Below are positions 58,078 to 60,266 of a stretch of 64,000 nucleotides of DNA, in pieces. The stretch is from assembly GCF_965641715.1 (NCBI RefSeq), contig NZ_OZ282454.1; one strand, given 5' to 3'. The translations under genes and the position numbers were made by a program. The notes beneath the pieces were generated by a model. The model made no database searches, was not told the DNA's origin, and was given only the letters and a program-made list of their open reading frames with translations. Origin of the DNA: Escherichia coli (GTDB lineage: Bacteria; Pseudomonadota; Gammaproteobacteria; Enterobacterales; Enterobacteriaceae). Numbering within the stretch: position 1 is the first letter of the stretch; the number at the start of each line of letters is the position of its first letter.

Positions 58078-60266
58078 CAGAAATCATCTCCCGGCTCAAC
58101 ATCCTCCCCGCGCTCCCGGTGCACATTAATGTTCACCTCTTCACGACGCTGCATCTGCTGCTGGATGTCCGGATGATTTTCCTGTTGCCATGCCTCATAA
58201 GCGGCCATATCCACCACTTCACCGGATTCACTGATCCCGGGTGGCAGTTGCTGTTCCATCTCTTCTTCCGGTTTCATTTTCAGCTCCTGCTCGATCCCCC
58301 CTGCCGGAACATTCACACCTGAATCTGACTTCTTATCGTTGATGGCAGGAGACACCGGCTGTTGCGGCTGTTGCGGCTGTTGCGGCTGTTGCGGCTGTTG
58401 CGGCTGTTCAGCCTGAGTCACGTCTTCTCCGGAAACAACCTCCGGGACATCCGGTTCGAAGAGGCTGGCCATCTGACGACCTTCTGCTTCCCTTGCGGCA
58501 AGTACGGCACTCAGACGGTTCTCCATTTCCGGGTTGATGTCACGCGGAATAAACTCCGGAGCGACCTTCGGTCGTGTCTGATATTTCAGAGAGAGTTTTA
58601 CTGCCGGATACGGTCCGGGCAGGGTGACATAACAGGTCAGATCCGGCAGAGACTGAATGTCGGAATAACTGACCAGCGTCTGGCGCTCCATATCCTTACC
58701 GGTCGATACCCCGTCACGTACCGGATCAGCACCGTAGGAATACTGCTCGCTGGCTTTCAGGTGCTCTTTCTCACCAATCTCACCGGCAGCGAACTCTGCA
58801 ATCTTATGGCTGGGAGAACGGAAAAAGGCACGGGTGTTCATGACGTCAAACAGCGTGGCAGCCGCTTTCTCACCGTAGATATCTTCCAGCTGGGCATAGG
58901 ACTGGATACCAAACACATAACAGCCACCGAACTTACGGGCTTCCGGCAGGATCTCCACCAGGTCCGGCAGTTTGTGTAACGTGGGTAGCTCATCACAAAA
59001 AAACCACACACGACGGTTACGGTTTTCTCCCATTGCCAGCAGACCACGAATGGCAATGGACAGCCACATGGAGATCACCGGCTTCAGGGAGGCATGGGTG
59101 TCGGCATTCGACGAGATAAACAGCCAGCCGTTTTTCTGATCTTCCCGGACACCACGCATCCAGTCACGGATGGTAAAAGACTCACCGTTATGCTCAATCC
59201 CCTGCAGGTAACGGATGGCTTTCACGTAGTTGGTCAGCACAGCACGGATGGAAATCGCCGTTTTCTCAATTTTCTCTTCCACCAGGTTGGCCGCCGGTGA
59301 ATTACACAGGAAGGTACGCAGTTTTTCGATTTTGATGGAAAGCAGTGTGTCCACCAGTTTGCTGTAGCTGCGGTTGGGGTCATTACGCATCAGGTACGCC
59401 GCTTCCGCAAAAATGGTACGTCCTGAACCCTGCCAGAACGGGTCCTCTTTTGTGCCCATCGGGATCAGCGTGTTCGCGGTATTATCAAAATCCGGCTGTG
59501 TCAGGCACTCCTTCCACAAATCCCAGGCGGCACAGCGGGCATCCAGCGGATTCAGGATTTTATCGATGGAGGGATCATAGTAACTTTTAACAAATTCCCC
59601 TGAACGGTCATAAATCACCACCATATCTCCACGCTGACGGGCGTAGTTGGCCAGACGACGGATAACTTCCGACTTACCGGCCCCGACCGTGCCGTGCAGA
59701 CAGAAGTTCTGGATTTCGGAATCCCGGATAATCGGCAGGTCGCCAATCCGGATATCGGAGTCCTTGCCGTCTTTTTTCAGCATCCGGGCAACGTCTTTCG
59801 GATTGTCTGTCAGCTGACGACCACCTGTGACTTCATTTTCGCTCTGTTGTTTACCCTGACGCCCCAGAATCCAGGAGACAACAAAGAAGGTGATCAGGCA
59901 AATAACCAGTGCCACAACTGTGGCCAGAACGAATGCGGACCATAGCTGCTCTCCGCACCAGATCATATATTTATCATGCAGTACCTGAGCAGCGTTCATC
60001 CGGAAGGTTTTGCCGTAATACTGGATCTCATAGACCGGCTGGGACTTGATTAAATCCCGCATGCCTTCCAGCGTGGTACACCACCAGTAAATACAGCCGT
60101 TCACAAACGTCTGCCAGCTTATTTTTACCCATAAAACCAGACCAACGAGTATCCAGAAAAAAATAAACAGGCAGTAAAGCATGATATTGGCGATCTGGCT
60201 GAACATGCGGATACGCATGGACGCAATCTGACCGCCCTGGGTCATATCCTTTGCGTTAAAACTCAT
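58077..60266 (-). CDS. traD: Type IV coupling protein TraD (729 aa)
   Basis: TM N-terminus, Walker [10 protein letters not shown]-terminal QQP repeats and acidic tail. Confidence 0.95.
58362..58412 (-). repeat. Tandem 9-bp repeats encoding the QQP repeat tract of TraD
   Basis: (ggctgttgc) repeated about 5.5 times on the plus strand. Confidence 0.85.

Follow-up and report, generated by a model that had tools for sequence, protein, structure and literature searches.

A tandem 9-bp repeat in traD of an IncF plasmid encodes a QQP tract of variable length

The gene encoding the conjugative coupling protein TraD in a 64-kb stretch of Escherichia coli plasmid DNA (the window, by which the whole of the stretch analysed is meant) contains an array of 9-bp repeats that is very probably an in-frame coding minisatellite of IncF plasmids, prone to slippage and specifying a flexible, length-tolerant spacer whose length is probably near-neutral. 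The units, read as CAA-CAG-CCG, specify the sequence QP(QQP)5 in a C-terminal extension of TraD, which joins the TrwB-like ATPase domain to a conserved acidic tail that docks on TraM at oriT. Units may be gained and lost through slipped-strand mispairing during replication or through unequal recombination between units. Since nine is a multiple of three, such events never break the frame; they change length alone and do not switch the gene on or off. The resulting tract would act as a proline-rich spacer, largely independent of sequence, enabling the six tails of a TraD hexamer to contact TraM tetramers on the relaxosome, and a wide range of lengths is presumably tolerated. The tract is the variable region already described as the QQP motif, and the version in the window is one ordinary allele of it.

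The array and the gene that carries it

The gene occupies positions 58077..60266 on the minus strand and encodes 729 amino acids plus a stop codon (according to the list of open reading frames and matches to NCBIfam and Pfam). Its product matches NCBIfam family PRK13700 over residues 1-729 (1676.9 bits, against a cut-off of 1221), as well as TIGR02759 (831.4 bits, cut-off 521). It possesses the Pfam domains TraD_N (residues 32-128), TrwB_AAD_bind (172-561), and TraG-D_C, and residues 161-573 align with the TrwB chains 1e9r and 1gl6 (E = 9e-47). In the Walker A motif, GTVGAGKS, 25 homologues share G192, G197, K198, and S199 without exception; T193 and V194 are conserved as well. By every test applied, the protein is an F-type TraD type IV coupling protein, and the name given to the gene in a first-pass annotation, made from the sequence alone, was correct. 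The position of the gene agrees with the name, for it lies between traT and traI in the operon order traG-traS-traT-traD-traI. The genes for TraG, TraT, and TraI flank traD and share its strand, and annotations of relatives give an identical order. The neighboring traI, encoding a relaxase/helicase of 1756 amino acids (52807..58077, minus strand; found in the list of open reading frames and matching NCBIfam PRK13709 with 3321 bits over residues 1-1756), overlaps traD by a single base, shared by the traI start codon and the traD stop codon.

The array itself extends over 58356..58408 on the minus strand. Both direct reading and Tandem Repeats Finder give the unit CAACAGCCG (CGGCTGTTG on the plus strand), present in five perfect copies plus eight of the nine bases of a sixth (GAACAGCCG). 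Tandem Repeats Finder describes this interval as a repeat of period 9, with 5.9 copies, 100% matches, 0 indels, and a score of 106; nowhere else in the 64-kb window does a tandem repeat score 50 or more. A probe of three units found the array in four overlapping registers, while the same probe found nothing in 100 shuffles that preserved dinucleotide composition. The array is real and well above chance expectation. Read on the minus strand, the region 58200-58600 presents GAA CAG CCG, then five instances of CAA CAG CCG, then GTG. By translation and codon register, QP(QQP)5 corresponds to TraD residues 621-637 and its codons to positions 58356..58406.

The first-pass annotation had reported a QQP tract encoded by 9-bp tandem repeats, and this is what both methods find. 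The string of 17 residues it quoted is exactly right, and its estimate of about 5.5 copies is fair. The interval it gave, 58362-58412, has the proper length but is placed about 6 nt too high, taking in Ala-Glu codons and dropping the last Gln-Pro. It had also called the tract C-terminal, which is so in the sense that the tract is part of the C-terminal extension of the protein, though 92 residues separate the end of the tract from the C-terminus.

A tandem repeat might matter as nucleic acid rather than as protein. The array could conceivably form a structured RNA, present an array of sites for a binding protein, or belong to a coding sequence on the opposite strand, and there is indeed an open reading frame of 205 codons on the plus strand (58362-58979 in the list of open reading frames) with a TTG start codon that lies inside the array. 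That reading frame, however, lies entirely on the antisense strand of a strongly conserved gene, and the product it would encode has a low-complexity LRL start and is unremarkable thereafter; we rejected it as a gene. A structured element was rejected as well, as the array has no match to any Rfam family and its single strand folds no better than shuffled sequences (z = +1.17). Finally, variation in the length of the array strictly keeps the frame of traD. The likelihood that the array serves at the level of DNA, RNA, or an antisense product thus seems negligible.

Variation in unit number among related plasmids

The 624-bp 3' end of traD, used as the query, matches 3,983 plasmids in PLSDB. 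Among 5,426 complete E. coli genomes, 2,803 have a match to it on a plasmid or the chromosome. Sixteen related traD loci were read directly, and 156 of the roughly 7,000 matching records were tabulated, with the proviso that the list of best matches is biased through the scoring of gaps by BLAST. Clusters of proteins at 90% identity merge different repeat numbers and so are unsuited to counting alleles: thousands of members are represented by P0001, which has 3 units, and P0003, which has 1.

By direct reading, the number of QQP units ranges from 1 to 26. One unit is found in the classical F plasmid of strain EMG2 (L014) and in L003, 3 units in L007, 4 in L005 and in plasmid pRHB38-C15_2 (L011), 5 in the window, 7 in L006 and L010, 8 in L008, 15 in L002 and L009, 18 in L001, 24 in L013, and 26 (encoding 80 residues) in L012. 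The sixteenth locus, L004 of CP088688.1, lies in a record so ridden with errors that its units could not be counted. The 156 tabulated matches fall into 18 length classes, from 5 units fewer than the window to 20 units more. Variation in unit number among F-like plasmids had been asserted in the first-pass annotation, along with the suggestion that other traD sequences be compared, and the comparison confirms it. In all but one of the 156 matches, the length departs from that of the window by whole multiples of 9 bp, never by 3 or 6 bp. Since variation comes in whole units, it points to slippage of units or unequal exchange rather than to random in-frame indels.

Perhaps, though, the number of units in the window is an artefact of sequencing or assembly, a repeat that has been collapsed or expanded. 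Repeat arrays are prone to misassembly, and CP088688.1 illustrates the danger, in keeping with the advice of the first-pass annotation to check read support across the repeat. It is the sole match whose length (a span of 692 bp) departs from the 9-bp rule, and between positions 540 and 760 of L004 many indels and frame breaks are spread across the 3' end of traD, inside the repeat as well as around it; no traD is annotated there. We considered whether this might be a genuine frameshift allele and rejected the idea, since the entire region is full of indels and frame breaks, which are probably uncorrected errors of long-read sequencing. The record stands as a warning against taking repeat counts from such assemblies. 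The array in the window is a different case. At 53 bp, it is shorter than a typical short read, and it is perfectly in frame. Moreover, the 624-bp segment of the window, including its 5 units, is found without change in at least 18 independent PLSDB records, and of the 156 lengths tabulated, 155 differ by exact multiples of 9. We consider it very improbable that the count in the window is an error.

How quickly the count changes can be appreciated from close relatives. The traD gene of pRHB38-C15_2, the closest relative among the matches listed, is identical to that of the window over about 2.18 kb except that one 9-bp unit is missing. Twenty PLSDB records listed at 100.0% identity in the flanks represent 7 length classes, and the 60 best matches (at least 99.7% identity) represent 8. 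Turnover of units thus far outpaces the accumulation of point substitutions in the flanks, which amount to roughly 570 bases.

The resemblance to pRHB38-C15_2 extends beyond traD. This E. coli plasmid (CP057088.1), obtained from pig faeces in the UK and typed as IncFIA/IncFIB and conjugative, is identical in its positions 1-24000 to the first 24 kb of the window, and it matches the tra end of the window at 99.9%. About 11.1 kb of the plasmid (L011 1127-12252), comprising tet(A)/tetR, a TnAs1-family Tn3-like transposase, and their neighbors, is absent from the window. The missing block adjoins a 1,126-bp element of the IS481 family, of which the window has two inverted copies (41185-42310 and 19301-20426). 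In addition, the 3' part of traI in pRHB38-C15_2 appears, relative to the window, to contain a tandem duplication of 128 bp (L011 22905-23175, corresponding to 52956-53098 of the window). It would break the frame of traI, which fits with traI not being annotated there; traI of the window is full length, at 1756 amino acids. The window also has five Rfam matches above the gathering score, at 55152-55228, 63818-63903, 47627-47717, and 33271-33413 on the plus strand and 24947-25064 on the minus strand, namely AS-traI, AS-traG, a CopA-like RNA, the isrN sRNA, and an IS1222-type frameshift element. The two antisense RNAs lie within traI and traG, respectively, and the CopA-like RNA at the IncFII replicon.

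Compared with classical F, the traD of the window is a mosaic. The two genes differ by 32 substitutions, all between nucleotides 139 and 1488 and none afterwards, and in the last 700 nt the only difference is the 36 nt of repeat. In classical F and in L003, traD and traI are also held apart by vapBC, a toxin-antitoxin pair encoded on the other strand; in the window, the two genes overlap by one base.

The units are of two alleles, CAACAGCCG (ending in CCG) and CAACAGCCA (ending in CCA), each associated with its own flanking haplotype. Arrays are internally pure, as is expected from recent expansion. There are two hybrids among the loci read: in L009 (NZ_CP051726.1, 586-726), 13 units of CAACAGCCA are followed by 2 of CAACAGCCG, and in L012 (NZ_CP195805.1, 586-825), 20 are followed by 6. 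In both cases the sequence to the left of the array belongs to the CCA haplotype and that to the right belongs to the CCG haplotype. The hybrids suggest a recombination junction in or beside the repeat, with both sub-runs still varying in length.

The C-terminal extension and the role of the tract

Homology of TraD to TrwB ends at residue 573, where the TrwB chain itself ends; residues 574-729 are therefore an extension specific to F-like TraD proteins (58080..58547, minus strand), delimited by the end of that homology, by alignment, and by an AlphaFold2 (AF2) model. The QQP tract occupies the middle of this extension. When 25 TraD proteins with identities down to 59% are aligned, the extension resolves into three parts: a conserved, helix-forming block (...LFEPD), a variable linker, and a conserved tail with the pattern GGxEQELK...LPPGIxExGEVVDMxAYEAWQ...EPGDDF. 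The QQP repeats are found in the variable segment only in the closest of the aligned relatives (about 77% identity or more), among them proteins from E. coli, Salmonella, and Atlantibacter. In the proteins of Buttiauxella, Serratia, Pectobacterium, those of the Klebsiella type, and others, the same position is occupied by an unrelated stretch rich in Pro, Ala, Ser, and Thr and of very different length.

The AF2 model places a helix at residues 579-603 and further helices at 687-710; between them, residues 606-674 are coil and have a pLDDT below 50. Across residues 610-670, pLDDT is 24-29, and there is no secondary structure. The model is poor overall (mean pLDDT of 59, built on an alignment of 25 sequences), and its low values are weak evidence for disorder, as pLDDT is also low at 495-578, where TraD aligns with the TrwB chain of known structure. 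The extension has been described in the literature as unstructured (PMC3245843, PMC3159463, PMC7555446).

The last eight residues of TraD, DVEPGDDF (58080..58103, minus strand), match Asp710-Phe717 of the F protein, a tail that binds the tetramerisation domain of TraM (PMC7555446, PMC3159463). The TraD of the window ends in this acidic tail with its terminal aromatic residue, the putative TraM-binding tail, and apart from the repeat its gene is free of substitutions relative to classical F after nucleotide 1488. The contact between tail and TraM is weak, and both avidity and flexibility of the tail are thought to be important (PMC7555446, PMC3159463).

The case for a spacer is put together from several of these observations: the unrelated low-complexity filler in distant TraD proteins, the conserved blocks on either side, the end of TrwB homology at residue 573, and the coil of the AF2 model. 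That its length is near-neutral is suggested by the tolerance of anything from 1 to 26 units. But one might read the same range differently. Perhaps the number of repeats is functionally tuned or under diversifying selection, acting on the reach of the tail or its affinity for the relaxosome (TraM/TraI), on regulation of the ATPase, or on sensitivity to male-specific RNA phages of the R17 type, in which case the array would be a locus of the contingency type, generating variants in transfer or in resistance to phage. The very fast turnover and the very wide range, 1-26 units, speak for such an account, and Lang et al. have proposed both that heterogeneity in the C-terminus may underlie differences between R1 and F and that resistance to phages drives diversification (PMC3245843). 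Nevertheless, mutation pressure alone suffices to give high variability in a perfect array, every length that was read, from 1 to 26 units, comes from a plasmid typed as conjugative, and the use of unrelated low-complexity sequence by distant TraD proteins indicates that composition and flexibility outweigh precise length. We therefore regard tuning or selection as unlikely. A stronger form of the idea, at which Lang et al. hint, is that the array is a hypermutable tuning knob: through rapid gain and loss of units, some donors would come to have longer- or shorter-reaching TraD tails than others and so differ in docking to the relaxosome, range of mobilisation, or susceptibility to male-specific RNA phages, with the diversity kept by selection, for example by phages. 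This we judge slightly less likely still. If it were true that length alters transfer or phage sensitivity, the array would be a modestly interesting instance of a coding repeat that tunes conjugation. No published experiment on the length of the QQP repeat was found.

The importance of the array is largely practical. As a discovery it counts for little, being a minor polymorphism, already published, in a protein that has been studied well. Yet the array may be wrong in assemblies of IncF plasmids, or it may truly differ between nearly identical plasmids, and comparisons of plasmids based on SNPs should mask it or score it as a repeat-count character. The count also explains the lengths annotated for TraD, which run from 717 amino acids in classical F (1 unit) to about 790 (26 units). 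The first-pass annotation had proposed that the repeat could be used for typing. No published scheme that does so was found in the full-text literature searched, the coverage of which was incomplete, so that absence is not proof; publications in which traD and tandem repeats both come up are concerned with other matters and present no typing scheme. The proposal holds at most for very fine-scale comparison, since the count changes between near-identical plasmids and recurs on different backgrounds. The array could be a marker for tracking plasmids at that scale, but at best a very fast one, prone to homoplasy, because its units are nearly all identical.

Comparison with known systems

Lang et al. 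2011 (Mol Microbiol 82:1071, PMC3245843, Fig. 8) described the QQP motif as a variable region of TraD, with a length of 5 residues in F (QPQQP) and 23 in R1. They suggested that heterogeneity in the C-terminus of TraD, including this motif, may explain differences between R1 and F, and they proposed resistance to phages as the driver of diversification of F-like coupling proteins (PMC3245843). The polymorphism was thus known, as the first-pass annotation had said. The tract in the window is in the same protein, at the same position in the extension, with the same repeat of Gln-Gln-Pro, and there is no difference in kind: its repeats are sequential, lie upstream of the TraM interaction domain, and vary in length among relatives. 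The published value for F is reproduced in the F plasmid of EMG2, and the two loci with 7 units, L006 and L010, have the 23 residues published for R1. Relative to the F allele, the window has a tract of 17 residues and 5 units; in all other respects the 3' 700 nt of its traD are the same as in F. To the published motif the present comparison adds a range that extends to 26 units (80 residues), the existence of a CCG and a CCA allele of the unit, and a difference of one unit between near-identical plasmids.

Three other systems invite comparison. The X-region of the spa gene of Staphylococcus aureus is a coding VNTR used for typing, whose units differ in sequence and whose unit order is therefore informative. 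The traD array resembles it as a short in-frame repeat that encodes a low-complexity segment of protein and changes rapidly in copy number by slippage or recombination. The units of traD, however, are essentially identical, of just two alleles, so only their count is informative, and equal counts arise repeatedly.

The (Glu-Pro)n-(Lys-Pro)n region of TonB is a proline-rich, extended spacer and offers an analogy at the level of protein. Both regions are periodic, proline-containing, low-complexity linkers between two functional parts, likely extended and flexible and tolerant of changes in length. They belong to different proteins and compartments and have different repeats, the TraD tract being cytoplasmic and derived from a perfect, hypervariable repeat in DNA.

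Lastly, the phase-variable genes of Neisseria and Haemophilus have contingency loci made of simple sequence. These loci, like the traD array, are perfect tandem repeats in coding sequence, hypermutable in the number of units. Phase variation at such a locus works by a switch of frame or of promoter spacing, whereas the 9-bp unit of traD keeps the frame and permits no on/off switching: every clean length variant (155/155) is in frame.
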